Positions 16,339 to 36,394 of a stretch of 58,266 bases of DNA are shown here, piece by piece. Source of the stretch: a virus. Its lineage: Duplodnaviria > Caudoviricetes. The position numbers were made by a program, and so were the translations under genes. The stretch spans positions 1 to 58,266 of the IMG/VR virus record IMGVR_UViG_3300042924_001589; one strand, 5' to 3'. The notes below the pieces were generated by a model. It searched no databases. It saw only the letters and a program-made list of their open reading frames with translations, and was not told the DNA's origin. Position 1 is the stretch's first letter. The number at the start of each line of letters is the position of its first letter.

Positions 16339-17823
16339 TCAGTAGTAGTTGATGCGACGGCGGCGAATCTTTTCCATCGGCTCATCGCTATCAATGGATA
16401 TGAACCCGCCCTGCCTAAATCTCAGCAAGGCTTGGGTGCTGGAGTCCACCAAGTCATCATGCTCGGCATTGGGGAAAGACGCGAATTCCTCCACGACTTC
16501 CTCTGCCCAGCGAGTCTCTGGTGTCCACACGACCCCGCTAGAGAACAAATCGCTGACCGCGTTGACTCTGGCCACCTTGTCATTACCGCGACTTGGGGTG
16601 AACTCCGATACCGGAATACCCATGGCTCTTAGCTCGTAGATCAGCGGTGCGCCAGCGGCCTTGGCTTCGACAATGAAGGCATCTGGGTTGTACTGCATGT
16701 ACATCTCATATGCCTTCTTCTTTAGTTCCGGAAATTCCATGCGTTCTTTCACAGCGTCCAGAAGGATGATGTTGTTCTGTGTTACGCCGGTTTCCGGATT
16801 TGGATACTTAAACACGCCCCACGTAGTGCAGGCGGAGAAGTCCGAGGTTTGCTTCTTGGTGAAAGCGGTGTCCCAGGACTGAATCAAAAACTCACAAGGC
16901 GGTGGGTCTTCTCGCTCCCATACCCGCCACCATTCTCGCTTAACAATCGCCCCTTCTTCAGAGGTCGGATTCTGCTGGTACTGAGCCGACCACTTACCTG
17001 TCGGCAGTTCCGATCGAATGGCCTCTAACTCACCTAGCGACCAGAACTCTGGCCACAACGCATTGCCCGAGGGCAAGATCGCGGGAAGCTCAATCACTTC
17101 CCATTCATCGGTGCCGCCTCGCTCAATGGAGGCTTTTAGCACCCTACCTGTCAGATCCCGCTGATGCCAGCGGGTCATCACGATAATGATGGCACCACCT
17201 GGCTGCAAACGCTGCCGAGGGCCGGAGGTGTACCACTCATAGGTCTTGTTGTAGACCGCAGGATCGCCTAAGGCAGCCTCCTGCTCACTATGAGGGTCAT
17301 CGATGATGAGAAGATCTGCACCCTTACCGGTGACAGCACCCCCAATACCGATGGCGAAATACTCACCACCTTTGTTGGTACTCCATCGGCCTGCGGCCTT
17401 GGAGTCTGCCTGCAAATCCACATCGGGAAAGATCTTGTGGTAGTCATCAGATGCAACAAGGTTACGAACCTTTCTACCGAATCCCACTGCCAGTTCCGCT
17501 GTGTGCGAACACTGAATGATCTTCTTGTTCGGGTAGTTACCCAAGAACCAAGCCGGCAGCATGTAAGAAGCAAACTCAGACTTGGTGTGACGAGGAGCCA
17601 TGTTGATGATCATGCGTTTGCACTCACCATTAGCCACTCGCTCAAAAGCCTTGGACATCACCTTGTGATGACTGCCCTCGATGAAGGCTGGCCACTGGCT
17701 TTTCACAAACTGGAGGAAGCCCCGCTGAGCTTTCTCGATCTCGCGGGCTTTCTCTAGCTCTTCGACTAGATGCAAGATCTCTGCCTTCTGAGTATCAGGC
17801 AGCAACGAAATCTTGCCAAGCAA
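16339..17823 (-). CDS. terL: Terminase large subunit
   Basis: Walker A-like MAPRHTKS, Walker B LLIIDDP, MTRW coupling motif, nuclease SWDTA and HDDLVDS. The start codon is uncertain (TTG). Confidence 0.93.
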   Translation of the reverse strand: MLGKISLLPDTQKAEILHLVEELEKAREIEKAQRGFLQFVKSQWPAFIEGSHHKVMSKAFERVANGECKRMIINMAPRHTKSEFASYMLPAWFLGNYPNKKIIQCSHTAELAVGFGRKVRNLVASDDYHKIFPDVDLQADSKAAGRWSTNKGGEYFAIGIGGAVTGKGADLLIIDDPHSEQEAALGDPAVYNKTYEWYTSGPRQRLQPGGAIIIVMTRWHQRDLTGRVLKASIERGGTDEWEVIELPAILPSGNALWPEFWSLGELEAIRSELPTGKWSAQYQQNPTSEEGAIVKREWWRVWEREDPPPCEFLIQSWDTAFTKKQTSDFSACTTWGVFKYPNPETGVTQNNIILLDAVKERMEFPELKKKAYEMYMQYNPDAFIVEAKAAGAPLIYELRAMGIPVSEFTPSRGNDKVARVNAVSDLFSSGVVWTPETRWAEEVVEEFASFPNAEHDDLVDSSTQALLRFRQGGFISIDSDEPMEKIRRRRINYY

Positions 17824-17999
17824 ATTAGGGTCGAGGTTGAGAATAAGAACTGCCTAGTAAGCCGCGCGGTACAGCGTATATATATACACCATGCCGAGGG
17901 GCTTCAATAGCCCCGAGGCATAACCCCCTGCAAACAGTACTGACTTAATACAGACTTTACGTTGGAATACCCGGGGGTTCTTAGGGGGGATTTCCCTCG

Positions 18000-18027
18000 A
18001 TTTTAGCATGCTACCCCCCCTTGACAA
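18000..18027 (-). promoter_or_regulatory. Putative sigma70-type promoter for the late operon
   Basis: Minus strand TTGTCA-16 nt-TAAAAT with an extended -10 TG, ~180 bp upstream of terL. Confidence 0.5.
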
Positions 18028-18503
18028 GAAATTCAACAAGAGTTTTTTCACAAGTAATCCTAATTAGATTCATGTAGTTAGGAGATTCAGTAGGCAGTTT
18101 TATACGATTTCACTTTGCGTTCACCTAGTGGATATAGGTATGAACGATGTGTGTACGTTGTACGTACATCACATACAGACGCTACGCGTCTTTCTGCACA
18201 AATACCCCCCGTGGGGTAGGGGTTCCTATGACTTTATTGCAAATAAAAAAGGGGAACTGCCTGTAGGAATAGGGTGTGGTTTTTAAACAACGGGGTGGGG
18301 GTTGGAGTTACAAGCTGTAGTGAGGGGAATAGTGTACGGGTCGCGCGCGGGTACCGTCACGCGCAGCGGGGGGTCGGGGGTATGTCCAGACGCGCGCCAG
18401 CGTCACGCGAAGCGGGTAGGGGTGATTTCTTTGAGAATTCTTTGACGTCTCCAGGGCGAGACTGGCAGTTGCTGTGAAATTTCACAACTGTCCGCAGAGT
18501 GGT

Positions 18504-18518
18504 CATAACATTGTTATG
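18504..18518. repeat. 15-bp dyad CATAACATTGTTATG (copy 1)
   Basis: Read directly; just upstream of the promoter at 18530. Confidence 0.9.
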
Positions 18519-18529
18519 CAAAAAAGTGC

Positions 18530-18557
18530 TTGCATATGTATATACATATGAGAGAAT
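18530..18557 (+). promoter_or_regulatory. Putative early promoter with an 18-bp palindrome in the spacer
   Basis: TTGCAT-16-GAGAAT overlapping the perfect palindrome CATATGTATATACATATG; closely resembles the promoter at 19869. Confidence 0.6.
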
Positions 18558-18644
18558 AGCGAAGCGGTAGGTTCACCCTGTCGCTTGCTCTGTAAAAATC
18601 TGGAATTGGCGCGGATTCACCACACAACCATGGGGAATCCGAAA

Positions 18645-19127
18645 ATGACTATCAACATAAAGCCCGTAATTACCGCCTTTGACGCGACCGTGAAAGCACA
18701 CGGCTCTTTCAAGGCGAAAGTCCTCGAATTGTATTCGGGATGCAAGGCCGCCTCTGACTACCTTGCGCGACGCAAGGCCGTGAATGAGGCGATTGATAAG
18801 GCCGTGTCCGATAAGGGCAAGGCCTCAAAGGTAAAGGCCGCGATTAACACGGTATTAAACCGTGACGTTCTCGCGGCCGCTAACATCAAACTGGTAGCCC
18901 GCAAAGGCGGCCGCAAGGCCGCACCAAAGGCGACACCAAAGGCCGCGACCAGTACCGCGAAAGGCGGTAAGGCCGCGACCAGTACCGCAACGATTCAGGC
19001 CGCAACGCCTACCGATTTTCTCTCGGTGGTGTCGGCATGGGTAGCGGGAAAGAGTAAGGCCGAATTGACCTCGATGCGTTCGCGTATCGATGGCCTGTTC
19101 GCTTCTGCAATCGTCAATAGCAAGTAA
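18645..19127 (+). CDS. Ala/Lys-rich basic early protein (160 aa, histone H1-like linker)
   Basis: ATG at 18645 after GGGGA; KAAPKATPKAATSTAKGGKAATSTA tract encoded by a 20-bp direct repeat; has its own promoter and terminator. Confidence 0.75.
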   Translation: MTINIKPVITAFDATVKAHGSFKAKVLELYSGCKAASDYLARRKAVNEAIDKAVSDKGKASKVKAAINTVLNRDVLAAANIKLVARKGGRKAAPKATPKAATSTAKGGKAATSTATIQAATPTDFLSVVSAWVAGKSKAELTSMRSRIDGLFASAIVNSK

Positions 19128-19158
19128 AAACTAAAACGTCCGCGCCGATTCCATCACC

Positions 19159-19198
19159 AAGCCCCTAGGATTCACGTCCTAGGGGCTTTTTGCTTTTT
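19159..19198 (+). terminator. Rho-independent terminator
   Basis: AAGCCCCTAGGA-TTCACG-TCCTAGGGGCTT followed by a T-rich tract. Confidence 0.88.
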
Positions 19199-19199
19199 G

Positions 19200-19214
19200 C
19201 ATAACATTGTTATG
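19200..19214. repeat. 15-bp dyad CATAACATTGTTATG (copy 2), overlaps the terS stop codon
   Basis: Read directly; extends to GCATAACATTGTTATGC. Confidence 0.9.
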
Positions 19215-19770
19215 CGGAATCGCTCTCCGATTCCTCGCCATCCTCGCTGTCATCGCACTCGATGACGTCATCCTCATCATCCGTTTCGTCAGGGCTGACA
19301 GGCGCTTGCACTAACGCAGACAGACGGGCGATCAGTTCGCTCTCCACCTCGGCAGACGGACGCATGACGTTCGCCACGTTCACGTTCACCTGCTGACTGC
19401 CAGTCTCGATCAGTTTCGATGCCCTCGCCAGAATCGATAGGGCAGACACACGAGAGGCAGGCGGGCTGTTGCCATCACTTGCCTCCTCCTTCAGACGGGT
19501 GAGCGTCCACTCCCGCAGCCCGATGCTCTGCTCCAGCAACGTCTTCTCGCTCTTTCGCTTCAGCCCCTCGATGTGTCGCTGCACCCTCGGATCGCCCATC
19601 AGACGGGCGGCAGCAGAATGTATAGACGCTTTCTTCGCATTGTCTCCAGGGCGATACGCTGTGGCATACGCCTGCACCGGACGGTCGCCCTTCACCACTA
19701 ACTCGCAGAACTTGATGGCATTTTTAGTAAGAGGCTTCAGCCCTTGCATAGTCGGTTCATTGCTCGGCAT
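19210..19770 (-). CDS. terS: Terminase small subunit
   Basis: LT....KFC...V.G....QAY..AY...A.RL...P.V...I HTH-like N-terminus, SRVSAL..LA and acidic tail; upstream of terL on the same strand. Confidence 0.75.
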   Translation of the reverse strand: MPSNEPTMQGLKPLTKNAIKFCELVVKGDRPVQAYATAYRPGDNAKKASIHSAAARLMGDPRVQRHIEGLKRKSEKTLLEQSIGLREWTLTRLKEEASDGNSPPASRVSALSILARASKLIETGSQQVNVNVANVMRPSAEVESELIARLSALVQAPVSPDETDDEDDVIECDDSEDGEESESDSA

Positions 19771-19868
19771 GACGTTATGACCTTATAACGAATTTCGGAT
19801 GGTCGGAATGTACAGGGTGTGATAGGCGGCAGGCAATAGGCAGACGGGTGGATAAGTGTCAGTGGGTA

Positions 19869-19897
19869 TTGACATATGTATATACATTTGCTATAAT
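19869..19897 (+). promoter_or_regulatory. Perfect consensus sigma70 early promoter
   Basis: TTGACA-17 nt (TATGTATATACATTTGC)-TATAAT. Confidence 0.92.
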
Positions 19898-19930
19898 GGC
19901 GGAGCCAAAGTAGGAAATCACTTAACTCTA

Positions 19931-19945
19931 CATAACATTGTTATG
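19931..19945. repeat. 15-bp dyad CATAACATTGTTATG (copy 3)
   Basis: Read directly; ~30 nt downstream of the -10 box. Confidence 0.9.
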
Positions 19946-19949
19946 TGAA

Positions 19950-20460
19950 CTTCTACCGGTAGGCGGGATGGGCGAGCCTAGTTATGGGCGGTGACCCCTG
20001 AAACGATCTGGAAGAGGATCGGGACAGACTGACAATCTGTTCGGGCGTGAAGGCTGCTAGGTAGAAAGACGCGATAGCGTCTGTATGCGTAGCGAAGCGT
20101 AGCGCGCTGGCGTGTGGGCTGCACACGCAAGGAGTGAAGTCGTGACAAGTCGGTTTCTGTGTACACACACAAAAAGGTATTAGACAGCCCTTTAAGGGTA
20201 GACGATTGACGATAGATGGACTGAGGTCTGTCAGGTCACACCACCGGATAGCCGGTTCGATCGTGTTAAGCCTGTGTACATAGACGCCTAGATGACTCAC
20301 TCCGTAGCCGATACGGACAGGCAATGTATGTCCTGCGGCGTTAATGGCTGAAGCGCATAACAATGTTATGTCGCTGCCACCAGTATCCGCATATATCGCT
20401 GTACCGCATTATTGGACAGCCTAGGCTGCCTTGTTGGGAGATAGGGCAGCCGTGGGTGTT
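19950..20460 (+). ncRNA. Candidate large structured non-coding RNA / leader
   Basis: No credible long ORF. At least eight stems, including long-range pairs 19951-19957/20060-20066 and 20156-20167/20273-20284. Lies directly behind the consensus promoter. Confidence 0.5.
20356..20370. repeat. 15-bp dyad CATAACAATGTTATG (copy 4)
   Basis: Read directly. Confidence 0.9.
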
Positions 20461-20480
20461 CAACAAACCGGAGAGACGCA

Positions 20481-20702
20481 ATGCAACTGGATAAAGGTAC
20501 TTACGGTCGCCTCCAGACAGGCGGCACTACTGCCCGCGTGATGGACAACCTCCGCAACAAGGGTGCATCCCGTTGGGCAATCAAGATCAAGGGTCAGGTG
20601 ATTGTGGTGGGGGACAAACTCCACGCCGTCGCCCTGTATGAGAAGGCAGTGGCTCTGGGTGCAGAGCCTGCCCTAGTTCGCAGCGGCAAAACCGTTGCAT
20701 AA
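20481..20702 (+). CDS. Hypothetical early protein
   Basis: 73 aa with GGAG RBS; stop codon overlaps dyad copy 5. Confidence 0.7.
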   Translation: MQLDKGTYGRLQTGGTTARVMDNLRNKGASRWAIKIKGQVIVVGDKLHAVALYEKAVALGAEPALVRSGKTVA

Positions 20703-20712
20703 CTTTGTTATG
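20698..20712. repeat. Dyad variant CATAACTTTGTTATG (copy 5)
   Basis: One mismatch to consensus; overlaps a stop codon and precedes the AAAGGAG RBS. Confidence 0.85.
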
Positions 20713-20729
20713 TGAAAGGAGTGAAGGAA

Positions 20730-21089
20730 ATGGGTATTGATTATCAGGGTTTAGTGAACAAGGCACATGACGCGGGAATGTCGGCACTCAATGCCATTGT
20801 TCCCACCCCCATGGTGGTACGAGGTGGCGTACCTGGAGGTGAACAGCGGACATGGTACGTCGATGAAGGTGCGTGTGGATTCGCATGGATCGAGTTCGCA
20901 GGTAACACTGCCTTCGGTCGATGGGCGAAGAAGGCAGGCGTGGCTCACCCGCATTACCCGAAAGGGCTGTGTGTATGGGTGAGCGAGGGTGGGCAGTCGA
21001 TTGCTCGCAAGGAAGCCTATGCCATCGCCTTCGCCAAGGTGCTTAACGAGGCGGGTATTTCAGCCCGTCCCAATTCCAGACTGGATTGA
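20730..21089 (+). CDS. Conserved phage early protein (G.CGFAW family)
   Basis: GACGFAWI...QS..RKEAYA.AFA.VL...G.....SRLD motif; ATG at 20730. Confidence 0.75.
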   Translation: MGIDYQGLVNKAHDAGMSALNAIVPTPMVVRGGVPGGEQRTWYVDEGACGFAWIEFAGNTAFGRWAKKAGVAHPHYPKGLCVWVSEGGQSIARKEAYAIAFAKVLNEAGISARPNSRLD

Positions 21090-21097
21090 GGTGACGT

Positions 21098-21265
21098 ATG
21101 ACGCGCAAAGTAAGTAATCAGATTCTCGAAATGATCGAGGACGGCACCTTGAAAAAAGACATCGTGATCCTTGCCTGTCTCCAATACATGAGTGAGGACG
21201 AGGTGGCAGACATGGCTCGTATGAATGAGTTTCTGTGCGAGGAGGAACCAGATGATGAAGGCTAA
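21098..21265 (+). CDS. Small acidic early protein (55 aa, not in the ORF track)
   Basis: GAGGTG RBS; MTRKVSNQILEMIEDGTLKKDIVILACLQYMSEDEVADMARMNEFLCEEEPDDEG. Confidence 0.75.
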   Translation: MTRKVSNQILEMIEDGTLKKDIVILACLQYMSEDEVADMARMNEFLCEEEPDDEG

Positions 21266-21452
21266 AAAGTTACAGGTGACTATCGTATTTGAGTATGACG
21301 GCATCGACAACGCGGATAGTGTCGAGGCAGACGGGTGGATCGAAGGCATCAACGAGGATTTGATGGCATTCGGCATAGCCTGTGGCGCAAACCATGTATG
21401 GGTAGACGACGCCAAGGTCGTGGAGGTGGATCGGTCTACTACCTTGTCTTGA
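21252..21452 (+). CDS. Small acidic hypothetical protein
   Basis: GGAGGA RBS before ATG at 21252/21255. Confidence 0.65.
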   Translation: MMKAKKLQVTIVFEYDGIDNADSVEADGWIEGINEDLMAFGIACGANHVWVDDAKVVEVDRSTTLS

Positions 21453-21476
21453 CGTATATACAAAAGAGAGTATAAT
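21449..21476 (+). promoter_or_regulatory. sigma70-type early promoter
   Basis: TTGACG-16 nt-TATAAT with a GTATATAC core shared with the other two early promoters. Confidence 0.75.
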
Positions 21477-21539
21477 TTGCGTGTTGAATAATTATTAAAC
21501 GGAAACCCGCAAAGCGGGTGAACGCGGGGCTTGTCCCCA

Positions 21540-21554
21540 CATAACAATGTTATG
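21540..21554. repeat. 15-bp dyad CATAACAATGTTATG (copy 6)
   Basis: Read directly; immediately before the AAAGGAG RBS of the amidoligase gene. Confidence 0.9.
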
Positions 21555-21570
21555 CAAAGGAGTGAAGACC

Positions 21571-23034
21571 ATGCATATTTTCGGTTCTAAGTATTTCGCT
21601 TGGGCTTTTGACGATCCGCATGACCTATCGCGTTTCAGGCAGCGATCGTTTATCAATGCCTACCTAAAACTGTACAGCGAGAATCGTGAGACTGCTGTCA
21701 GTCTCATGGAGAAGTTCGTCAACTCCACGCCATCCTATCGTACCAACGAGTACCAAGGTACTGACGGGCGGCACAACATCACACGCCATCACTGCGTGAC
21801 TTTCATCCTGCGACCGTTGACCGACGCCTGCAAGGACGAGGGCTTCATGCTGCCATGGGTGATGTACCAAAACGAAGTCAGTTATCGGGATGAGTCCATC
21901 TCGACAGATCGACTACGCCTGTGGCATGGGTTCTGCAACGAACCCAATGTATGCGATGGCGACGATGCTGTTGAATACATGCAGAACGCAATCGGCATGT
22001 TCACCTGCGAGGACTGCGGTCACCCCACCGCAGAAGATGACTGTCCCAGCGTGGGCGACTACACCAGCATCTGCACGAGCTGCTGCGACATTAGTTATAC
22101 ATGGTCAGACTACGAGGATCGCTACATCCACAACGACGATGTATGCACTGCCCTCGATCAGTATGGCAATGGGGTGTCCATCAGTTCTAGCAACACTGGT
22201 GATTTCACCTATGATGAAGATCGCGAGATGTACGTCCACGACGAGTACGAGCCGCCGCTCATCCGCGATTACCACTCATCCAAGAGCAGCATCTCGTACA
22301 AGCCAGACGAGTGGACTGCTAGGTATGACCGATACCTGGGCGTCGAGTTGGAAGTCGAGTGCGTCGAGACCAGTCGCACTTCACAGGCGCAGATGATCAA
22401 GGATTACGTCGAGAACAGCGGTCATCGTCTGTTCTTCGAGCGTGATGGTTCGCTACAGAGCGGCTTTGAGATGATCACTGATCCCATGTCGCTACCCGCG
22501 CACCGTGACCTGTTCTCTTTCCTCAAGGAGCGACCGATCACTCGCGGTATGCGTAGCCACAACACCACCACTTGTGGTCTCCATGTCCATGTCAGCCGCT
22601 CCGGTCTGACTGACCTTCAAATCCAGAAGGTCGTGGCGTTCGTGAATTCGCCAGACAACGAATGGTTCATCCGCGCATTGGCTCGCCGCTACTCATCAGG
22701 TTTCTGTGTGGTCAAGTCCGACAAGAAGATCGGCAAGTCCATTCATATCGGACTCGACAGATACGAGGCAGTCAATCTCACTAACCGCCGCACTATCGAG
22801 TTCCGCATCTTCCGAGGCAGTCTCAAGTACGAGGCCGTGATTGCAGCAATCGAGTTCTGCCACGCCATACTCGAGTTCTGCAAGCCAGCCAACACTGGCA
22901 TCAACCAACTGTCAGCCGGTGCGTTCCTGACCTTCTGCTCAAAGCAGTTGGCAGCAGACACCAAAACCCTGCGAGCGTATGTATCGCAGCGCATCAGCGG
23001 ACGAGCAGAAGTAACAGAAGAAGAAGCCGCATAA
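21571..23034 (+). CDS. Putative amidoligase (COOH-NH2 ligase type 2) with an N-terminal Cys-rich region
   Basis: GVELEVE, DGSL..GFE..T.P, TCGLHVHVS, RY.AVN and TIEFRIF motifs; ATG at 21571. Confidence 0.85.
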   Translation: MHIFGSKYFAWAFDDPHDLSRFRQRSFINAYLKLYSENRETAVSLMEKFVNSTPSYRTNEYQGTDGRHNITRHHCVTFILRPLTDACKDEGFMLPWVMYQNEVSYRDESISTDRLRLWHGFCNEPNVCDGDDAVEYMQNAIGMFTCEDCGHPTAEDDCPSVGDYTSICTSCCDISYTWSDYEDRYIHNDDVCTALDQYGNGVSISSSNTGDFTYDEDREMYVHDEYEPPLIRDYHSSKSSISYKPDEWTARYDRYLGVELEVECVETSRTSQAQMIKDYVENSGHRLFFERDGSLQSGFEMITDPMSLPAHRDLFSFLKERPITRGMRSHNTTTCGLHVHVSRSGLTDLQIQKVVAFVNSPDNEWFIRALARRYSSGFCVVKSDKKIGKSIHIGLDRYEAVNLTNRRTIEFRIFRGSLKYEAVIAAIEFCHAILEFCKPANTGINQLSAGAFLTFCSKQLAADTKTLRAYVSQRISGRAEVTEEEAA

Positions 23035-23044
23035 CATTGTTATG
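23030..23044. repeat. 15-bp dyad CATAACATTGTTATG (copy 7), overlaps the amidoligase stop codon
   Basis: Read directly. Confidence 0.9.
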
Positions 23045-23082
23045 TAAGGCTCGACAATCAAATCAACCAAGGAGTAATGACA

Positions 23083-24018
23083 ATGTGTTTGTTAGTAGAA
23101 CAAAAGCAAGATACCCAATTCGACGACGCCTTCCTGCGTGACGTGTACAGCAAGAACCGTGACGGCATCGGCATCATGTACGCCGAGGCTGGTCATGTTG
23201 TAGTCAAGAAGTTGCTGCCCAAGACAGCGCAGGACTTTGTCGAGTTCTATCGGCAGTACGCCGATGGCCGCGACTGCATCTGGCATGCCCGTATGCAGAC
23301 TCACGGCGACATCGACCTCGACAACTGCCATCCCTACATGGTGACCAAGAACATCTGGATGGCACACAACGGCATCCTCACATCAGGCAATGACAACGAC
23401 AAGAAGAAGTCCGATACCTGGCACTTCATCCGCAATGTCATCGAGCCTGCTGTGTCGTACAACCCTGCGCTACTGCTCGATCCGCAGTATCAGGCGTTCC
23501 TTGGCGATCTAATCGGCGGCACTAACAAGTTCGGATTCATGACACACACCGGTGAGTCCGTCATCATCAATCGCAGTGCAGGCGTGACCTTCCAAGGTGC
23601 GTGGCTCTCCAACACCTACGCATGGTCTGCCGGTAAGTACGGACTGGGCGGTAAGACTTCAGGTCTGTCCGTATATTCATCCTATGGCAGTCGCTATGCC
23701 GGTGAGTATTCCTACTACGACTGGGAGGAGGGCTATTCCTACAACAAGAAAAGCAAGGAGGTATCGCGCAACTCACCGACCGAAATGAAGACGGTGGTCA
23801 AGGCTGCCTACAACTCATGGCTCAACAACAACCTACAGCAGTGGGTCAACGATGCGCCGTGGAAAGCTAGCGCCTTGTTGGAGTTCGCCTACGAGAGTGC
23901 CGAATGCGAGGACATCGTGGCAGATGATCCGGTTATGGCAGCGCAGTGGATCGAGGAGTTGTTCACCGAACACGGTCTGACACCGTTCAACATGCAAATC
24001 AACTGGGATGCGGCATAA
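23083..24018 (+). CDS. Class II (Ntn) glutamine amidotransferase
   Basis: Start at 23083 (8 nt after AAGGAG) gives Met-Cys, the N-terminal nucleophile; N.DG.G, HAR..THG, NCHP, HNG and SDT motifs. Confidence 0.87.
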   Translation: MCLLVEQKQDTQFDDAFLRDVYSKNRDGIGIMYAEAGHVVVKKLLPKTAQDFVEFYRQYADGRDCIWHARMQTHGDIDLDNCHPYMVTKNIWMAHNGILTSGNDNDKKKSDTWHFIRNVIEPAVSYNPALLLDPQYQAFLGDLIGGTNKFGFMTHTGESVIINRSAGVTFQGAWLSNTYAWSAGKYGLGGKTSGLSVYSSYGSRYAGEYSYYDWEEGYSYNKKSKEVSRNSPTEMKTVVKAAYNSWLNNNLQQWVNDAPWKASALLEFAYESAECEDIVADDPVMAAQWIEELFTEHGLTPFNMQINWDAA

Positions 24019-24033
24019 CAAGGGAGTGATGAC

Positions 24034-24444
24034 ATGGGACTAGATATGTATCTAACTGGTGAGAAGTCTTTCACCAATGATTTCAATGAGCCAGCAAACA
24101 ATGTTATGGAAGATGGCTTCCGACTGAAGTCAAAGCGATATGAACTGGGCTACTGGCGCAAGCACCCGAATCTGCATGGCTACATCGTGCAGAGTTTCGC
24201 CAGTGGTGTGGATGATTGCCGAGAGATATACCTTGCTGAACCTGACATCAGGGAAATCATATCGGCTATCAAGACTAGGAAACTGCCATTCACTGAAGGC
24301 TTCTTCTTCGGCGTCTCTCAAACAACCGATGAAAGGATTGCCGAGGATGTGGCTATCTTTCAATCCGCTTTGCTCTGGATGACTAACATGGAAAGCAGAA
24401 TGCCAGGGGAATACCGGATGGTGATCTATCAGGCCAGTTGGTAG
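24034..24444 (+). CDS. Conserved phage protein (MGLDMY...YWRK...Y.ASW family)
   Basis: Characteristic motifs; GGGAG RBS. Confidence 0.75.
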   Translation: MGLDMYLTGEKSFTNDFNEPANNVMEDGFRLKSKRYELGYWRKHPNLHGYIVQSFASGVDDCREIYLAEPDIREIISAIKTRKLPFTEGFFFGVSQTTDERIAEDVAIFQSALLWMTNMESRMPGEYRMVIYQASW

Positions 24445-24475
24445 CCGCGTTGCGGCTGTATGCAGCCATCGGCTG

Positions 24476-24490
24476 CATAACATTGTTATG
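24476..24490. repeat. 15-bp dyad CATAACATTGTTATG (copy 8)
   Basis: Read directly; preceded by two tandem hairpins and followed by an AGGAG RBS. Confidence 0.9.
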
Positions 24491-24505
24491 TAATAGGAGA
24501 TAAGC

Positions 24506-24739
24506 ATGAGCCAGTACAGTGACGATTATTACTACAACGACGATTACGATATGCATCGTGCATATCATGAGCAGAGTCAGCATCAACAGCGAGTGCTGGA
24601 GATACAGACACTGATTCGATATCACAAAACCCTAGTGGATTGCTTAGAGACGGAACTCAAGGTGATGGAGTTAGGCTTTGGTAAGAGGAAGTTCTCTGAT
24701 GCTATCCGCAGCAAACCGAATACAGACATCCCTTTCTAA
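24506..24739 (+). CDS. Hypothetical protein
   Basis: 77 aa; AGGAG RBS. Confidence 0.7.
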   Translation: MSQYSDDYYYNDDYDMHRAYHEQSQHQQRVLEIQTLIRYHKTLVDCLETELKVMELGFGKRKFSDAIRSKPNTDIPF

Positions 24740-25160
24740 GTTGTCTCGCAAGTTTCTTGGCTTGTCTGACTTCATCGAGGGACTGCCTATCGAGCATGCT
24801 CCACACCTGGCCGTGGCTGGCACTGACGGCAGCCGCCTGATGTTCAACTTCGACCACGTGGATATGCTCGATGACGATCAACTCGATGGGCTTGTCATGC
24901 ACGAGATCATTCATGTGATCGATATGCATGCCGAGCGAGCAACAGACAAGAACCTGACCCTGTGGAACTCCGCCTGTGATCTACGCAGCAACTACATTGT
25001 GCGTAGTGTGCAGATGCGAGTCCCGCAGGGTACGGCGGACAACGCAGCCTATGATGGCATGAATGTCGACTCCATCTATGGTGATCTGCTGTCGCAGTAT
25101 CGCCGGATGCGTAGGCAGTTTATGCCTAGGGCTAAAGCAATCAAAGGTAAGTTAGTGTGA
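24699..25160 (+). CDS. Stand-alone DUF2201-N-like putative metallopeptidase
   Basis: AGTDG..L.FN, HEIIH (HExxH), H..R and WN.ACD...N motifs; probable ATG at 24699. Confidence 0.7.
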   Translation: MLSAANRIQTSLSKLSRKFLGLSDFIEGLPIEHAPHLAVAGTDGSRLMFNFDHVDMLDDDQLDGLVMHEIIHVIDMHAERATDKNLTLWNSACDLRSNYIVRSVQMRVPQGTADNAAYDGMNVDSIYGDLLSQYRRMRRQFMPRAKAIKGKLV

Positions 25161-25342
25161 GAAAGAAAGATCAAACCATAGACAGGAAGATCAACGAGAT
25201 CGCCAGTCTTCGCAACCAGATAGCGGAGATGGAGATCGCGATCAACAAAGAACGCGGTGAGCGTTTAGTTGCAGAGGTGATGCTATGCGCCATGTTGTTT
25301 GGCGCTGGTGTTGTGTTGGGTTACTGGTTAGCAGGAGTGTGA
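25157..25342 (+). CDS. Small coiled-coil protein with a C-terminal transmembrane segment
   Basis: 61 aa with a hydrophobic C-terminus; coupled to its neighbours. Confidence 0.6.
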   Translation: MRKKDQTIDRKINEIASLRNQIAEMEIAINKERGERLVAEVMLCAMLFGAGVVLGYWLAGV

Positions 25343-25343
25343 C

Positions 25344-25580
25344 ATGTCATTTTCAGATAGACAGAAAGCAGCAGTGGGTTTGGCGCTTGGAATTATGTGC
25401 ATCACTGGCGGATTCATCGGTGGCTACTACGTGACACAGACCATCAATGAGATTCAGGCAGTGCAAAGTTGCGGTGCGATGTATCACCCGAAAACCGCTA
25501 AATTCCAGTGGATTCCATGCGATCCCACCAACATGACGATCATCTCTGAGGAGGACAGAGCGTGGCAGGAAAAGCAGTAA
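25344..25580 (+). CDS. Small membrane-anchored protein
   Basis: N-terminal hydrophobic helix; AGGAG RBS. Confidence 0.6.
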   Translation: MSFSDRQKAAVGLALGIMCITGGFIGGYYVTQTINEIQAVQSCGAMYHPKTAKFQWIPCDPTNMTIISEEDRAWQEKQ

Positions 25581-25828
25581 AGAAGAACAAGGCGCTGGAC
25601 GATCTGATCGTGGTACTGAATAGCCACACCTACGAGATGATCCAGTCTCTGATTGTGGCTGAACTCATGTCCACTCTGGACTGCCTTGAGCATGACCTGA
25701 AGAAGCGCAAGGCTGGTGGATATGAGTACGGTGTCTTCTCGTCTGACAAGCGGGAGGACATCAAGATAATCCAGCAGCACATCGACGCGATGAAGTTGGT
25801 CACCGCCTACTTCGGTGTCAAGGAATGA
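25562..25828 (+). CDS. Hypothetical protein
   Basis: 88 aa; GGAGGA RBS before a GTG start. Confidence 0.6.
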   Translation: MAGKAVKKNKALDDLIVVLNSHTYEMIQSLIVAELMSTLDCLEHDLKKRKAGGYEYGVFSSDKREDIKIIQQHIDAMKLVTAYFGVKE

Positions 25829-25831
25829 GAT

Positions 25832-26050
25832 ATGGAACGCAAGTACACCAAGATATCCAGGTACAACCCGCGCATATCGTTTGATCAGTACGCAACCCTA
25901 CTGCAGCGCAAAGCCAATGCCGTCAACAATAGGACTAAGTATCGTGATCTGGTGAAGGCGTGGGGCATAGGGCAGTCTGTATTGGGGACTGCCCTCAAGC
26001 GCGGTATCAAGCAATACGACTACAAGATATGGAAGGAGACGCAAAGATGA
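25832..26050 (+). CDS. Small basic hypothetical protein (possible HTH)
   Basis: 72 aa; YRDLVKAWGIGQSVLGTALKRG resembles a helix-turn-helix. Confidence 0.55.
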   Translation: MERKYTKISRYNPRISFDQYATLLQRKANAVNNRTKYRDLVKAWGIGQSVLGTALKRGIKQYDYKIWKETQR

Positions 26051-26232
26051 ATGGCAAACCAAGAGCCACTCTGGTCGGTTTCAAAACACTACCGGAAGCA
26101 CAGCAATGTTTGTATCAGTTGACTAAGGACTACATGATTTCGGTAGTGACCGAAGGCACATTCGATGGTACGCCGCTGGCCTACATCGTGGTGCGTAAGG
26201 ACTACGAGCCGATCGTGAAGGGGCAGTTATGA
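26047..26232 (+). CDS. Hypothetical protein
   Basis: ATGA overlap with the upstream gene; AAGGAG RBS. Confidence 0.6.
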   Translation: MNGKPRATLVGFKTLPEAQQCLYQLTKDYMISVVTEGTFDGTPLAYIVVRKDYEPIVKGQL

Positions 26233-26417
26233 AACTCTATGACGTTCCAAGAAACAGTCGCATCAGATTGCTAGGCGACACGCTATCGAGTGACATGGAA
26301 TTAAATTTCCACCACATCGATGGCATGTATTCCTATTGCACAGATGATGATGGGAATGTAATGCATCTGGCAGCATGGACTGAGATTGAATTAGTTAAAC
26401 AGGAGCAACCGCGATGA
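26229..26417 (+). CDS. Hypothetical phage protein
   Basis: MKLYDVPRNSRI...FHHIDGMYSYC...G...HL family; ATGA overlaps. Confidence 0.65.
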   Translation: MKLYDVPRNSRIRLLGDTLSSDMELNFHHIDGMYSYCTDDDGNVMHLAAWTEIELVKQEQPR

Positions 26418-26620
26418 CCCGCGATGACATTTTTAGAATGGCTCACGAAGTCGGATTAAAAACGCCATGGGATTTGATGGAATATCAATGGAAATTTGCC
26501 GCCCTCGTTGCCGCCGCCGAGCGGGAGGCGTGTGCGAAAATCTGCGACAAAATCCCTGCGCTAGCCATCAATCAAGCCAAAGCAGCGGCTAAACAAATTC
26601 GGGCGAGGGGTGGAAAGTAG
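26414..26620 (+). CDS. Small phage protein of the AAAEREACA family
   Basis: FAALVAAAEREACAK.C...A..IRARG motif common in proteobacterial phages. Confidence 0.7.
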   Translation: MTRDDIFRMAHEVGLKTPWDLMEYQWKFAALVAAAEREACAKICDKIPALAINQAKAAAKQIRARGGK

Positions 26621-26623
26621 ATC

Positions 26624-27106
26624 ATGCATATAACATTGAGCGAAGCAGAGCAGAGGTTAGCTAAGTACTTAGCTAAGCAGCGGTATGACAGCGCCAGAGA
26701 GAAAGGTCTGCCTAATCGGAAGATAGGGGATCAGTCCAACGAACTCACCGATCTGGAGGGTATCGCTGCCGAGATCGCCTTCTGCAAACTCGCCAATGTC
26801 TACCCCGACCTAGACCTTGATCACACCAAGGCAGAGGACTGCTACCTTCGAGACGGCAGGTCAGTGGATGTCAAGTCCACCACCTATGAGAGCGGCAGGC
26901 TATTGGCAGTCAAATGGAAAGATGCCACACAGGTGGATCTGTTTGTCCTGATGGTGGGCAAGTTCCCCAAGTACCGGTGTGCCGGCTTCTTGACATCGAC
27001 CGAGTTGCTCGATGCCAAAAGGTTGACTAACCTCGGGCATGGAGAGGGCTATGCCGCTACCCAAAACGAGTTACATGATCTATCCATACTGAACATAGGA
27101 GATTGA
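26624..27106 (+). CDS. Putative PD-(D/E)xK nuclease-fold protein
   Basis: G..AE.AF...D......VDVKST pattern. Confidence 0.5.
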   Translation: MHITLSEAEQRLAKYLAKQRYDSAREKGLPNRKIGDQSNELTDLEGIAAEIAFCKLANVYPDLDLDHTKAEDCYLRDGRSVDVKSTTYESGRLLAVKWKDATQVDLFVLMVGKFPKYRCAGFLTSTELLDAKRLTNLGHGEGYAATQNELHDLSILNIGD

Positions 27107-27107
27107 C

Positions 27108-27413
27108 ATGATCGATGATGAGTCACCTCCAGGTAGCTGGCAGGAGGAGATGAACCGGATGCCGTGGAAATGGGGGCAGCACCCCTCTATCCCACCGAAT
27201 GAAGCACTAGCCAGACTGCAAGCAAGGAATCTGTACGTTGAGTACACGGCACTGAGCGACGAGATCCGAAGACTTCAATCCGATTTGTTCTTAGCAAGAG
27301 AGAGGTTAGCAAGATATGTCGAACAAGAACGAACTCAAAAAGCAGATCTATCAGGAAATCAAAGCCCTTCACGGCAGGATTCAAGCCCTCAATGCCAAGC
27401 TGACTCGACTTGA
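27108..27413 (+). CDS. Hypothetical protein
   Basis: 101 aa; AGGAG RBS. Confidence 0.55.
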   Translation: MIDDESPPGSWQEEMNRMPWKWGQHPSIPPNEALARLQARNLYVEYTALSDEIRRLQSDLFLARERLARYVEQERTQKADLSGNQSPSRQDSSPQCQADST

Positions 27414-27498
27414 GATTGACTCACCCGAGCCGTTCCATTTCGATGATGACTACATACCACCCTTCTTGAGAAAGAAAGATGTCCCCTATACCCATTGA
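27316..27498 (+). CDS. Small coiled-coil hypothetical protein
   Basis: 60 aa; GAGG RBS; overlaps neighbours. Confidence 0.5.
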   Translation: MSNKNELKKQIYQEIKALHGRIQALNAKLTRLEIDSPEPFHFDDDYIPPFLRKKDVPYTH

Positions 27499-27931
27499 GA
27501 TGAGACTACGTGCAGAGCAACTGATCTATGAGTTGCATGGCTGGTCTTCAGCACACCCCGCCACTGCCTACTCCGACTGCATGTCCGAGGCGGCCTATCT
27601 GCTGTCCGACATGATGAAGGTACTCAACGCACGGCCTGTCAAGGGATTGACACCCGAGGCTGTATTGCAGGAAGCCAAGGACATGATTGCCGAGCGTGGC
27701 AAGCGCAGGGACAACGGGCAGGAACGCTCGATGCAAAGGATTGTCAAGACCTTCGAAGCCCTCACCGATCACAAGATGACCGAGGTCGAGGGCTGGTTAT
27801 TCATGGTGGTTCTCAAGCTCTGCCGAGAACGCACCGGATCTGACATCGATAACTGGATAGATGGGGCTGCCTACATGGGGTTGGCAGCCGAGGCTGTGGA
27901 AAAAAGCAGGGGCAATGCCCCCTCTGCATAA
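27479..27931 (+). CDS. DUF6378-like domain protein
   Basis: L.EA...I.ERG...I...F....G..FM..LK..R....D.W.D.A.Y..LA pattern. Confidence 0.7.
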   Translation: MSPIPIEMRLRAEQLIYELHGWSSAHPATAYSDCMSEAAYLLSDMMKVLNARPVKGLTPEAVLQEAKDMIAERGKRRDNGQERSMQRIVKTFEALTDHKMTEVEGWLFMVVLKLCRERTGSDIDNWIDGAAYMGLAAEAVEKSRGNAPSA

Positions 27932-27941
27932 CAATGTTATG
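27927..27941. repeat. 15-bp dyad CATAACAATGTTATG (copy 9), extended by TTAAAT into a XerD-like arm
   Basis: CCTCTGCATAA-CAATG-TTATGTTAAAT; overlaps a stop codon. Confidence 0.9.
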
Positions 27942-28004
27942 TTAAATTTCACGCCTCACCACCCCATCTCATGCGTCTTCACTCCGTGGTTGTGGTGAAC
28001 TTTT

Positions 28005-28038
28005 GCCCGTTGGCGTCAAACCCAACGGGCTTTTTTTT
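28005..28038 (+). terminator. Rho-independent terminator ending the early operon
   Basis: GCCCGTTGG-CGTCAAAC-CCAACGGGC followed by eight T. Confidence 0.88.
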
Positions 28039-28048
28039 GGAGTAAGAA

Positions 28049-28429
28049 ATGGCTAGAAAGAAGAAACCCGAGATCCCTGAAGAGATCGACATCAATGTCG
28101 TAATGCCAAGGATCTTGATCATGAAGAACGATGAAGCCTGTCTGCGTTCAGCAGAGAGGTTGGTGGAAGTGCTGGCGCAATGCTGCGCCGCTATCATCTC
28201 GGCCAACAGAGATGCCTCGATCTGCATGGGCATGGTCAACCATGTCTACGAAATCAACGGGACATTGCGGGTAGCCTTGGCGACCCATACCCCGCATGAT
28301 GTGGATCATTTCCGCATGACAATGATCGCCCTGTCGACTGCCTACGAAGAGATCATGGGCGGACACCAGATAGAACTCGTTGACCCTGTGGACTTTAGCG
28401 GGTTCGATGTCGCCCGAATGGAGGCATGA
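28049..28429 (+). CDS. Hypothetical protein
   Basis: 126 aa; GGAG RBS. Confidence 0.65.
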   Translation: MARKKKPEIPEEIDINVVMPRILIMKNDEACLRSAERLVEVLAQCCAAIISANRDASICMGMVNHVYEINGTLRVALATHTPHDVDHFRMTMIALSTAYEEIMGGHQIELVDPVDFSGFDVARMEA

Positions 28430-28659
28430 TGAAGTACAAAGCAGGAAAGACTAAGGGGATTGCCCTAGCGCCAGCTGCGGCAGATAACCCCCTAGCCAAA
28501 AGGATGCTTGAACAGATAGGCGGAACTGACTATCAATTATTAAAGACATTTCAGCAACACTTTGGCGCAAAGCTAGTGCATTACCAAGACAATGCAGGCG
28601 AGGTTGGCAAGCGACCGAAGTGGGCAGACCCCCCTCTGCCCAACCAAAAGGTGGCATAA
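28426..28659 (+). CDS. Hypothetical protein
   Basis: 77 aa; ATGA overlap; GGAGG RBS. Confidence 0.65.
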   Translation: MMKYKAGKTKGIALAPAAADNPLAKRMLEQIGGTDYQLLKTFQQHFGAKLVHYQDNAGEVGKRPKWADPPLPNQKVA

Positions 28660-28685
28660 TCTGTATTGACATATAGGAGGTCGAC

Positions 28686-29075
28686 ATGGCTTACACCAAA
28701 GCGAGCCTGCGTGAGCGGCTCAAGAATCAGATCATGGGCGAGAACGTGGCCGGCACGAAGGCAGGCCAGTGGTCAGCTCGCAAAGCACAGCTCCTTGGCA
28801 AGCGTTACAAGGAGGCTGGTGGCGGTTACTCCGGCAGCAAAACCAAAGCACAGAAGAGCTTAAGCAAATGGACAAAGCAAGAATGGACGACCAAATCTGG
28901 CAAGCCTTCGAGCAAGACTGGCGAAAGATATTTACCGAAGAAGGCAGTGAAAGCCCTGTCCTCGGAGGAGTACGCCAAGACGACAGCCGCCAAGCGCAAG
29001 GGCAAAGCGCAGGGCAAGCAGTTCGTGAAGCAGCCCAAAGCGATCGCCAAGAAGGTTAAGAAGTACCGAGACTAA
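28686..29075 (+). CDS. DUF5872-like highly basic protein
   Basis: GQWSARKAQLL...YK.AGGGY...QKSL.KWT.Q.W.T..G...RYLP; AGGAGG RBS. Confidence 0.8.
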   Translation: MAYTKASLRERLKNQIMGENVAGTKAGQWSARKAQLLGKRYKEAGGGYSGSKTKAQKSLSKWTKQEWTTKSGKPSSKTGERYLPKKAVKALSSEEYAKTTAAKRKGKAQGKQFVKQPKAIAKKVKKYRD

Positions 29076-29079
29076 TCCC

Positions 29080-29421
29080 ATGCCAAAGAAGAAGAACGAA
29101 GACAAGATGCTGATCTTCCGTTGCCATGCCGCAACAATCTTGAAGGTCAAGGCCATCGCAGCAGCTGAGGGGCGGACGGTATCTGCCCAGATCCGTCACA
29201 TGATCGAGGACTACCCCCTCAAGCCCCGCTTCATCAAGGCTGCTAAGAACACCCTGAAGAAGAAGCCCGATGCTAGGCCGCAGGAGATCATCGAGGAGGC
29301 TCTGGCAGCCAAGTACCCTACCGAGGTAGCGACCCCAGACACGCCGCCTGTAAAGCCGTCTCCGCCAACTCAGTGGTGGAACGCACAGACCGACGAGAGC
29401 CAGGAGCCAGCGTCGGGTTGA
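29080..29421 (+). CDS. Putative ribbon-helix-helix (Arc-like) DNA-binding protein
   Basis: MLIFRC....LKVKAIAAAEGRTVSAQIRHMIE matches the Arc/CopG pattern. Confidence 0.6.
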   Translation: MPKKKNEDKMLIFRCHAATILKVKAIAAAEGRTVSAQIRHMIEDYPLKPRFIKAAKNTLKKKPDARPQEIIEEALAAKYPTEVATPDTPPVKPSPPTQWWNAQTDESQEPASG

Positions 29422-29839
29422 AGTAGACCTTGAGTGTATTGAGTCCAGTTCTCAATTCCCTGATCGGGGAAGGCAGTTCTCGGATGACTGAATTCCACAC
29501 CGCCCGGTATCCACTAGGCGGACAGTGGTCTTGCAAGTAACGGTCAGCCGACAGGATGGCCAACGCTCTGGGTGCGCGGTTCCCCACCGACATCTGCACC
29601 CGCTCCATCTGTATCGAAGATGGAAACACCCCAGACCTATGAGCCAGTGAATAGAACGCTATCGCAGCGTCGTACTGATCGACATCGATGGCCTTCTGCA
29701 GGTAGAGGCGATCGACCAGCAGTTGGTCGACCACCTTTGCCCTGAGGAAGACGCCGTCCTCGGACTCCAACCTCACCGTGTGGCGACGGTGTAGTTCGTT
29801 GGAGCCGAGTTCGTTGGCGACTAGATCCCTAGTTGTCAA
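29318..29839 (-). CDS. Hypothetical protein downstream of the primase-helicase
   Basis: Open frame; likely TTG start at 29839 overlapping the end of the primase gene (the track extends it to 29983). Confidence 0.6.
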   Translation of the reverse strand: MTTRDLVANELGSNELHRRHTVRLESEDGVFLRAKVVDQLLVDRLYLQKAIDVDQYDAAIAFYSLAHRSGVFPSSIQMERVQMSVGNRAPRALAILSADRYLQDHCPPSGYRAVWNSVIRELPSPIRELRTGLNTLKVYFNPTLAPGSRRSVRSTTELAETALQAACLGSLPR

Positions 29840-36145: not shown

Positions 36146-36394
36146 ATGAAAGATAAAGATCAAAAGGGAAAACTTTCGATCGTTAAAAATGATGGCGAGG
36201 TAACGGAGTTACATCCCAGTGCAGACACTGTGCTGAAAGGATTTATTGGGCAGGGGATTAGTCAAGTGCTGGTGATCAGCCTTGATAACGAAGGCACCTT
36301 CCGAACAGGAAGCAACACCTCATCCAAGGGAGAGATGTTGTTCCTGGTCGAGCAGTTTAAGCACTGCCTACTGGAAGGTGAGTTCGATGCTTAG
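36146..36394 (+). CDS. Hypothetical protein
   Basis: ATG at 36146 after AGGA; LFL.E.FK..LL motif. Confidence 0.6.
   Translation: MKDKDQKGKLSIVKNDGEVTELHPSADTVLKGFIGQGISQVLVISLDNEGTFRTGSNTSSKGEMLFLVEQFKHCLLEGEFDA

Follow-up and report, generated by a model that had tools for sequence, protein, structure and literature searches.

Our comparative analysis shows that positions 19904-20464 (+ strand) of the window, by which we mean the whole of the 58,266-bp IMG/VR virus record IMGVR_UViG_3300042924_001589 (Caudoviricetes), are the gene of a large multi-domain structured RNA, and that selection acts on the folded + strand RNA and not on a protein or on the DNA itself. The assignment draws on structure, covariation, non-coding status and purifying selection. 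An earlier note on this DNA, made from its letters, had proposed a hairpin-dense non-coding RNA behind a strong promoter; its central claim of a large RNA with several domains is now strongly supported, as is selection at the RNA level, by compensatory base changes, by an asymmetry of pairing between the two strands and by conservation above that of synonymous sites in neighbouring genes. The RNA is about 560 nucleotides (nt) long in the window phage and roughly 510-620 nt in its homologues, and its conserved core of about 445 nt contains some 24 helices together with internal loops that are invariant in sequence.

Homologues were sought at loci around relatives of the neighbouring 125-amino-acid (aa) protein (p125; IMG/VR and JGI metagenomes) and of p73 (IMG/VR), the small basic protein encoded directly downstream of the RNA, and copies of the RNA were found with nhmmer and with a covariance model of its central domain, which we call R1. 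The RNA is present in the window and in 14 further contigs, which together hold ten distinct sequences: those of the window and of loci L003, L004, L025, L026, L027, L029, L037, L112 and L113, the L004 sequence being repeated identically in L005, L006, L007, L018 and L038. The ten versions are 57-99% identical, and identity to the window falls from about 95% to about 58% among the eight compared. All carriers are freshwater phage contigs related to pelagiphages of the HTVC023P type. Its distribution is narrow: 84 of the 95 loci holding the 125-aa protein have no copy, and model R1 gave 7 matches in 91 sources, all of them already known, with none new in the RNA-less relatives and none in five whole related virus records (a search run without a positive control). 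Moreover, the region had no blastn match among 50,697 phage records of GenBank, and pattern scans of viral contigs returned copies of the L003 and L004 types only; a single pattern match in genome contigs, in a Sphingobacterium record, had no model R1 match and was taken as chance. The suspicion that the RNA would be new is borne out by Rfam 15, in which no family matches anywhere in the window at the gathering score. With the threshold relaxed to E up to 10, positions 19800-20550 gave only isrI, mir-885 and PK-repBA, at E 0.4-1 and far below gathering score, and at E up to 1 the homologous loci L004, L037 and L025 gave nothing relevant. The RNA is thus a new family of narrow distribution.

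Covariation supports a conserved fold. An RNAalifold consensus of eight sequences has 164 pairs, 46 of which are altered on both sides and yet remain paired, and 96.2% of its cells are paired; the corresponding count is 13.3±2.9 with shuffled partners (0 of 500 shuffles reach 46) and 2-11 when the pairing is slid by 1-3 columns. With the two most divergent sequences added, 60 of 140 pairs change on both sides and 95.3% of cells are paired, against 26.3±3.3 for shuffled partners (0 of 500 reach 60) and 7-15 for slid ones. Since the sequences are related, the shuffle control overstates significance, while the slid control keeps the relatedness and gives counts 4-8 times lower than those observed. 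Compensatory change, one of the checks that the earlier note had suggested, therefore stands well above both controls, and it is unusually strong for so few sequences. The consensus contains 158 G-U cells, and when the structure is read on the - strand only 84.7% of cells pair, as against 96.2% on the + strand, so that the G-U pairs, which had been taken as a sign of structure at the RNA level, are indeed specific to the + strand.

The rate of change points the same way. Comparison of the window with L004 gives an identity of 75-80% for the RNA core; at four-fold degenerate sites the figures are 28% for p73, 40% for p125, 52% for the amidoligase gene and 69% for terS. Between the window and L037 the RNA is 58-60% identical and four-fold sites 32-52%. 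Because its identity exceeds that of the four-fold sites, the RNA evolves more slowly than the neutral sites of the downstream genes, and it changes about as slowly as the neutral sites of terS, or more slowly.

The claim that the interval from the promoter to the ATG at 20481 contains no credible open reading frame (ORF) also held when homologues were compared, no frame being conserved across them. The longest frame, a 136-aa ORF on the minus strand (19953-20363), is not preserved in homologues and has no Pfam match; the longest open stretches differ by frame and by sequence among homologues, and substitutions between the window and L004 show no codon periodicity (46/44/34). A decayed protein gene, which the earlier note had named as one outcome that would speak against it, is thus not what the homologues show. 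Single sequences also fold better than shuffles. The + strand of 19950-20460 folds at -217.8 kcal/mol, while its dinucleotide-shuffled versions reach -177.1±6.9 and none of 100 does as well (z -5.86), so that here too the suggested test gave a clear answer; the - strand reaches -167.3 kcal/mol (z -4.07), and homologues folded singly give z -7.75 (L004) and -4.78 (L037).

The overall fold consists of a core closed by a long-range helix, three internal sets of domains, a 5' extension, a 3' hairpin and, at helix tips, expandable arms, and the insertions and deletions at helix tips are typical of structured RNAs. The 5' extension (19909-19957, +) is formed by a helix AGTAGGA/TTCTACC (19909-15/19951-57) around a hairpin (19929-19947) that carries the first of two CATAAC-N3-GTTATG dyads, dyad 1 (19931-19945), which is invariant. 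This helix shows changes on both sides in a three-sequence fold, and its strands are complementary in the window, L003, L004, L025, L026, L029 and L037 on a by-eye reading of the alignment. The 5' strand of the core-closing helix lies at 19963-19975 (+), with GCGG (19963-66) paired to CCGC (20404-07) and GGCGA (19971-75) to TCGCT (20396-400). In helix 2 a C-G pair becomes U-A in two sequences and a G-C pair becomes U-A in one, the pairing of helix 3 is never lost, and L037, L112 and L113 add compensatory changes of two kinds in favour of this closing of the core. Only the window-like group allows a competing pairing, between the 5' end of the transcript (19899-19905) and 20398-20407. Another candidate, 19963-66/20387-90 from the three-sequence fold, was rejected because L025 preserves the pairing 20334-38/20387-91 through two compensatory changes.

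Inside the core, domain 1 (19976-20042, +) comprises the hairpins 19976-80/19985-89, 20004-09/20016-21 and 20022-28/20036-42, and its helices 4, 5 and 6 have 3, 1 and 4 pairs changing on both sides. It is followed by a lineage-specific arm of 51 nt (20048-20098, +), including the hairpin AGACGC-GATA-GCGTCT (20067-82); L003, L004 and L113 lack this arm, L025 has a shorter one, and those of L037 and L112 differ. The tip of this arm (20063-20087, +) is one of two copies, 96% identical, of a 24-nt hairpin element (AGAAAGACGCG..GCGTCTGTAT), the other lying at 18172-18195 (-) in the gap upstream of terL; the element may be a small duplicated or mobile hairpin. The hairpin GCGTGTG-GGCTG-CACACGC (20110-20128, +; helices 8 and 9) has 4 pairs changing on both sides. 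The central domain of about 175 nt (20131-20303, +; helices 10-17), on which model R1 was built, has a long closing helix (20131-43/20292-303), then helix 11 (20152-66/20274-88), in which 9 of the 15 pairs covary, and a three-way junction at the distal end; in L113 a hairpin tip of this domain is longer by 51 nt. Further on are the hairpin GGACA-GGCAATGTA-TGTCC (20315-20333, +; helix 19), nearly invariant in sequence, with a 9-nt loop and 2 compensatory pairs, and an arm (20334-20391, +) closed by TGCGG/CCGCA (20334-38/20387-91) with dyad 2 (20356-20370) at its tip, in which compensatory change affects 3 pairs of helix 20 and 2 of helix 21. The 3' hairpin (20413-20462, +; helix 24) has about 19 pairs and a GGGA loop; it is 99.5% paired with 7 compensatory pairs, accommodates a 29-nt insertion in its loop in L027, ends 8 nt ahead of the p73 Shine-Dalgarno sequence and is not followed by a T-run. 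Its CCUAGG is invariant in all ten sequences and, being palindromic, hints at self-pairing; the internal loop GACAAGUCGG is likewise invariant in 10 of 10.

It is instructive to set this comparative model beside the eleven pairings that had been named from the single sequence. Nine agree with it: GATCT/GGATC and ACAGA/TCTGT, which are the second and third hairpins of domain 1; the long-range TCTGTGTACAC/GTGTACATAGA pairing, which is helix 11 (20152-66/20274-88); the hairpins AGACGC-GATA-GCGTCT (in the lineage-specific arm), GCGTGTG-GGCTG-CACACGC and ACCGG-ATAG-CCGGT; the TCCGTA hairpin, for whose first 3 nt a longer helix competes; the 12-bp stem with the GGGA loop; and both dyads (19931 and 20356). 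The remaining two are unsupported. TTCTACC (19951) had been paired with a GGTAGAA that falls in the 51-nt arm missing from L003 and L004, and its partner is instead AGTAGGA (19909-15), with compensatory changes in other lineages; similarly, GCCTA (19976) pairs not with TAGGC but with TGGGC (19985-89).

The gene is read from a sigma-70 promoter, TTGACA-17-TATAAT with a TG before the -10 element (19869-19897, +), from which transcription is predicted to start at about 19904. The promoter had been called perfect, and so it is: it matches the consensus at 12 of 12 positions and is the only such site within 17700-29500. The same 29-mer occurs unchanged in L003, L004, L025, L026, L027, L029 and L038, and in L037 and L112 the promoter is TTGACA-17-GATAAT. 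Within its spacer lies a palindrome, ATGTATATACAT (19876-19887; 19873-19889 in a wider delimitation), likely an operator, which is kept in every relative carrying the RNA promoter. A second copy of ATGTATATACAT sits inside a promoter-like site at 18536 (TTGCAT...AGAATA), ahead of the gene at about 18627, where it grows to an 18-nt perfect palindrome (18531-18548), and its presence in the spacers of two promoters suggests that a single repressor controls both. The structured RNA makes up the first ~560 nt of an early operon of about 8 kb, which runs on the + strand to a terminator at 28005-28030 and contains a single weak predicted intrinsic terminator, at 24459. No terminator follows the RNA, so that one transcript continues into p73 and the early genes, and physically the RNA doubles as a 5' leader for the first early cistron. 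The RNA would presumably be abundant and immediate-early, as the earlier note had it, to judge from the consensus promoter and from its place at the head of the operon.

Two short motifs tie the RNA to the expression signals of the genes around it. The dyad CATAAC-N3-GTTATG occurs nine times in the window, all within 18504-27941 and so in the early region only, against an expected 0.11; the 15-nt copies start at 18504, 19200, 19931, 20356, 20698, 21540, 23030, 24476 and 27927. It recurs in each RNA-bearing relative with invariant half-sites and a variable centre (ATT, AAT, TTT; TCG, TCA and CGA in L113; ACT in L112), and the RNA has one or two copies, on peripheral arms. Dyads outside the RNA typically overlap a TAA stop codon within CA-TAA-C, an overlap that we read for p73, the amidoligase gene, the gene ending at 27931 and, on the other strand, terS. 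Of the seven copies in the window that lie outside the RNA, six are followed within 30 nt by a Shine-Dalgarno-like GGAG, which in four is 2-6 nt away; the copy at 18504 precedes a promoter. With its flank, the right half of the dyad (AUUGUUAUGUAA) is identical to a portion of the T4 RegA consensus from systematic evolution of ligands by exponential enrichment given in PMC3014915. No RegA-family protein was found in the genome (PF01818, E up to 1), and the resemblance, a likeness of motifs, may serve as a lead.

The second motif is the box AGGAGTGAAG (20130-20139, +), which forms the 5' strand of the central-domain closing helix directly after a hairpin. It has three exact + strand copies, at 20130, 20717 and 21558, the latter two lying in the ribosome-binding regions of the genes that start at 20731 and 21568. 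Its GAGTGAA is invariant in all ten sequences. Thus the RNA contains a module, a hairpin followed by AGGAGUGAAG, which is identical to two early ribosome-binding regions and which is here locked in a helix.

The distribution of p73 (20481-20702, +) follows that of the RNA. It occurs in 12 of the 95 loci, namely the 11 that bear the RNA and L028, whose contig starts inside p73, and both extra p73 loci (L112 and L113) also carry the RNA. The protein has an isoelectric point (pI) of 10.1-10.9, belongs to no Pfam or PHROG family, and yields an AlphaFold model with a predicted local distance difference test score of 78.5. From its co-occurrence with the RNA our guess would be that p73 is a candidate RNA partner. 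In L113 (2010-2500) two other ORFs stand between the RNA and p73, which indicates that the RNA is not tied to one downstream gene.

How might such an RNA act? The reading that we favour, with belief and doubt about evenly balanced, is that of a self-contained RNA particle, which would be made early and in quantity and would work alone, as a multimer or with p73, rather than being a leader only. Its size, closed core, invariant internal loops and tip expansions resemble those of autonomous large RNAs and are unlike those of known leaders; autonomy is further suggested by the closing helix, which joins the ends of the core, and by the separation of RNA and p73 in L113. Within this reading, we entertain as a tentative and rather unlikely function that the RNA would be a decoy or platform for the factor or factors that read the phage's own intercistronic signals, since it presents both the CATAAC-N3-GTTATG dyad, found elsewhere between stop codon and Shine-Dalgarno sequence, and the locked hairpin-plus-AGGAGUGAAG module. 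A bolder version, which we would give a comparably modest chance, is that it represents a new giant ornate RNA class, cut or folded from the early leader and assembled, either alone by means of invariant palindromic elements or together with p73, into a defined particle acting in trans at host take-over. Such a particle would sequester a host or phage factor that reads junctions of a hairpin and a Shine-Dalgarno sequence, or would block RNA-directed defence, and if this were true it would be the first ornate RNA readably linked to gene-expression signals.

Several observations weigh against a self-contained particle. A discrete, stable or abundant RNA species is a prediction from sequence; no terminator or known processing site marks the 3' end, and in every version the 3' hairpin directly precedes a ribosome-binding site, a layout like that of a leader. 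The ten sequences all come from one narrow phage group and amount effectively to about five lineages. Contigs from RNA libraries (X24: 20236-20371 and 20405-20462, in the RNA only; X23: contigs including 20117-20267 and 20371-20525, three of the four in the RNA) are weak evidence, since they cannot give level, ends or strand; the runs of both libraries were chosen with this very DNA and may contain DNA themselves. As for the dyads, their invariant, perfectly symmetric half-sites and the copy at 18504 by a promoter look more like the operator of a dimeric DNA-binding protein than like an RNA hairpin, and the dyad-2 tip is deleted in L037 and replaced in L112 (~2290-2370) by an unrelated, longer GC-rich hairpin, so that at least this copy is dispensable. 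The p73 model has no usable fold match and no RNA-binding fold (Foldseek against the PDB, best E 0.38; VIA wide, best Z 4.5), and the link between p73 and the RNA may only mirror shared ancestry within one clade.

The most serious alternative, possible in our view though on the doubtful side, is that the RNA is a purely cis-acting 5' leader which stays folded on the mRNA, where it could render RNA polymerase resistant to Rho or to terminators along the ~8-kb operon, protect the 5' end against decay or determine how the first cistron is translated. Its position between promoter and first ribosome-binding site, with no terminator before 28005-28030, fits a purely cis role without proving it; moreover, the 3' hairpin ends 8-25 nt ahead of the Shine-Dalgarno sequence in all versions, including L113 with its different next gene, and an untranslated stretch of 560 nt would otherwise be exposed to Rho. 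However, a ~445-nt core with some 24 helices and invariant loops far exceeds the needs of the known cis antitermination and stabiliser RNAs (put, nut, 5' stem-loops), which measure tens of nt, the operon has no predicted intrinsic terminators to override except the weak site at 24459, and the p73 ribosome-binding site is not sequestered. Less probable still, indeed improbable, is a ribozyme that would cleave or process itself, for example to free itself from the mRNA, or catalyse some other reaction. Size, the closed multi-helix core and invariant loops such as GACAAGUCGG are of the order seen in large ribozymes, but neither the region (E up to 10) nor the three homologous loci (E up to 1) match a ribozyme or intron family in Rfam 15, there are no flanking exons, and no conserved pseudoknot was found in a scan that was weak and also missed helices known from the three-sequence fold.

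We also considered, and regard as very improbable, that the pairing is the by-product of an element that works at the DNA level next to terS, for instance a packaging site, an origin of replication or clustered operators. The region does adjoin terS and contains symmetric palindromes (the two dyads and the promoter operator); the terminal direct repeat (1-127/58140-58266) has exactly 127 nt, a common assembler k-mer length, and is probably an assembly overlap in what is probably a circular assembly, so that the true genome ends may lie elsewhere. Compensatory changes, however, preserve pairs up to about 440 nt apart, which a DNA element would not need, the 158 G-U cells would turn into A-C mismatches if the opposite strand or a cruciform did the pairing, and the region, with 52% GC, is neither AT-rich nor iteron-like. 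To a decayed or unrecognised protein gene we assign next to no probability: the 136-aa minus-strand ORF is open in the window, and the AGGAGTGAAG box with a nearby GTG resembles a gene start, but the frame comparison, periodicity and Pfam search described above all speak against one, the GTG is GCG in L004, and base pairing explains the pattern of substitutions.

The closest cultured relatives of the phage, by terminase large subunit, are the Pelagibacter phages HTVC027P and HTVC023P together with the seawater phage 023Pt_psg01, at 52-56% aa identity, and DNA nearly identical to the window is found in 11 lake-water or freshwater metagenome runs from 8 studies (42-96% of sampled words; runs flagged as a possible source were left out). 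The phage encodes terS, terL and a portal protein. Upstream of the RNA lie terL (16339-17823, -), a 760-nt gap (17824-18584) that has many G-runs and C-runs and no ORF of at least 90 aa, a gene for a basic protein of pI 10.4 (~18627-19127, +), a two-way terminator (19159-19188) and terS (19210-19770, -). In the gap, positions 17830-18500 fold moderately better than shuffles (z -2.6 on the + and -3.3 on the - strand; 20 shuffles); the gap could house a packaging signal, a further RNA or the promoter region for the structural genes. The basic protein has a repetitive K/A/T-rich tail reminiscent of histone-like DNA binders, diverges fast among relatives (42-91% identity) and has no family match. 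In the early operon the adjacent genes at 21547-23034 and 23077-24018 (+) encode Amidoligase_2 and class-II glutamine amidotransferase (GATase_4) domains, a pair often found together in phages. On the other strand, 36391-43410 (-) encodes a 2339-aa "polyvalent" protein with an LPD38 domain (E 8.5e-33) and a sub-threshold match to the ADP-ribosyltransferase family ART-PolyVal (25.7 bits, the cut-off being 31.2), and this multi-domain protein is probably injected.

Structured RNAs of more than 500 nt other than rRNAs and introns are rare, each new class having opened new RNA biology, and the present RNA adds an example to the few very large structured RNAs of phages. The tests available speak against GOLLD, ROOL, OLE, RNase P RNA, introns, known ribozymes and packaging RNA (pRNA): there was no match to the Rfam models of RNase P RNA, tmRNA, 6S, SRP, group I and II introns, small self-cleaving ribozymes or phi29 pRNA. 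In the literature searched we found no description of a comparable RNA, which does not prove that none is in print.

The nearest likeness is to ROOL and GOLLD, which are also phage-encoded, 0.5-0.8 kb long and elaborately and conservedly structured, with lineage-specific arms and an obscure function. Nevertheless, neither GOLLD (RF01998, a model of its conserved 3' region) nor ROOL (RF03087) matches in sequence or structure in the window, in 19800-20550 or at the three homologous loci. According to PMC12286853, ROOL env-120 has 659 nt and GOLLD often more than 800 nt, GOLLD was first seen in lake metagenomes, and the functions of both remain poorly understood. The same paper places ROOL and GOLLD near tRNA islands, whereas the 58-kb genome studied here has no tRNA or tmRNA gene (ARAGORN) and its RNA heads an early operon behind a consensus promoter. 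GOLLD, ROOL and OLE form ornate homo-oligomeric assemblies, while here we have palindromic motifs read from sequence. Like OLE, the present RNA is large and structured and may have a protein partner, for which p73 is our candidate, and the genes of OLE partners adjoin the OLE RNA gene. OLE itself is bacterial (extremophile Firmicutes) and not phage-borne, and the RNA described here has no Rfam match. OapB and OapC bind OLE RNA, as stated in titles in the reference list of PMC12286853.

The phi29 pRNA resembles the present RNA in being a phage RNA from an early promoter, and here too the gene stands beside packaging genes. It forms a ring through loop-loop contacts, and palindromic loops and boxes (CCUAGG and the dyads) exist in our RNA as well. 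The pRNA has about 120-174 nt and belongs to protein-primed phages that lack terS; unlike those, the present phage has terS, terL and a portal, and its RNA matches no Rfam pRNA. Smaller elements offer parallels of position. HK022 put, lambda nut and 5' stabiliser hairpins likewise stand at the start of a phage early operon and act as RNA; they span only some 15-70 nt and one or two hairpins, in contrast to the ~445-nt core and some 24 helices found here. Decoys of the CsrB type carry copies of a motif found at the ribosome-binding sites of their target mRNAs, in many repeats with little other structure. Our RNA also carries motifs of mRNAs, the dyad and the AGGAGUGAAG box, and differs in that its large ornate core bears just one or two dyads, of which one is dispensable.

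Candidate structured RNAs have been catalogued from the same source, the intergenic regions of IMG/VR, and by the same logic of covariation (Fremin, Bhatt and Kyrpides 2023, PMC10690425). The candidates are 29-151 nt long, and the catalogue would list at most fragments of the ~560-nt RNA. More generally, we see the RNA as one that offers handles which ROOL and GOLLD lack, namely a consensus promoter, a fixed place at the head of an early operon, a co-occurring basic protein and embedded intercistronic and ribosome-binding motifs, and these handles make its function testable by expression, binding and probing in E. coli, without the natural host.

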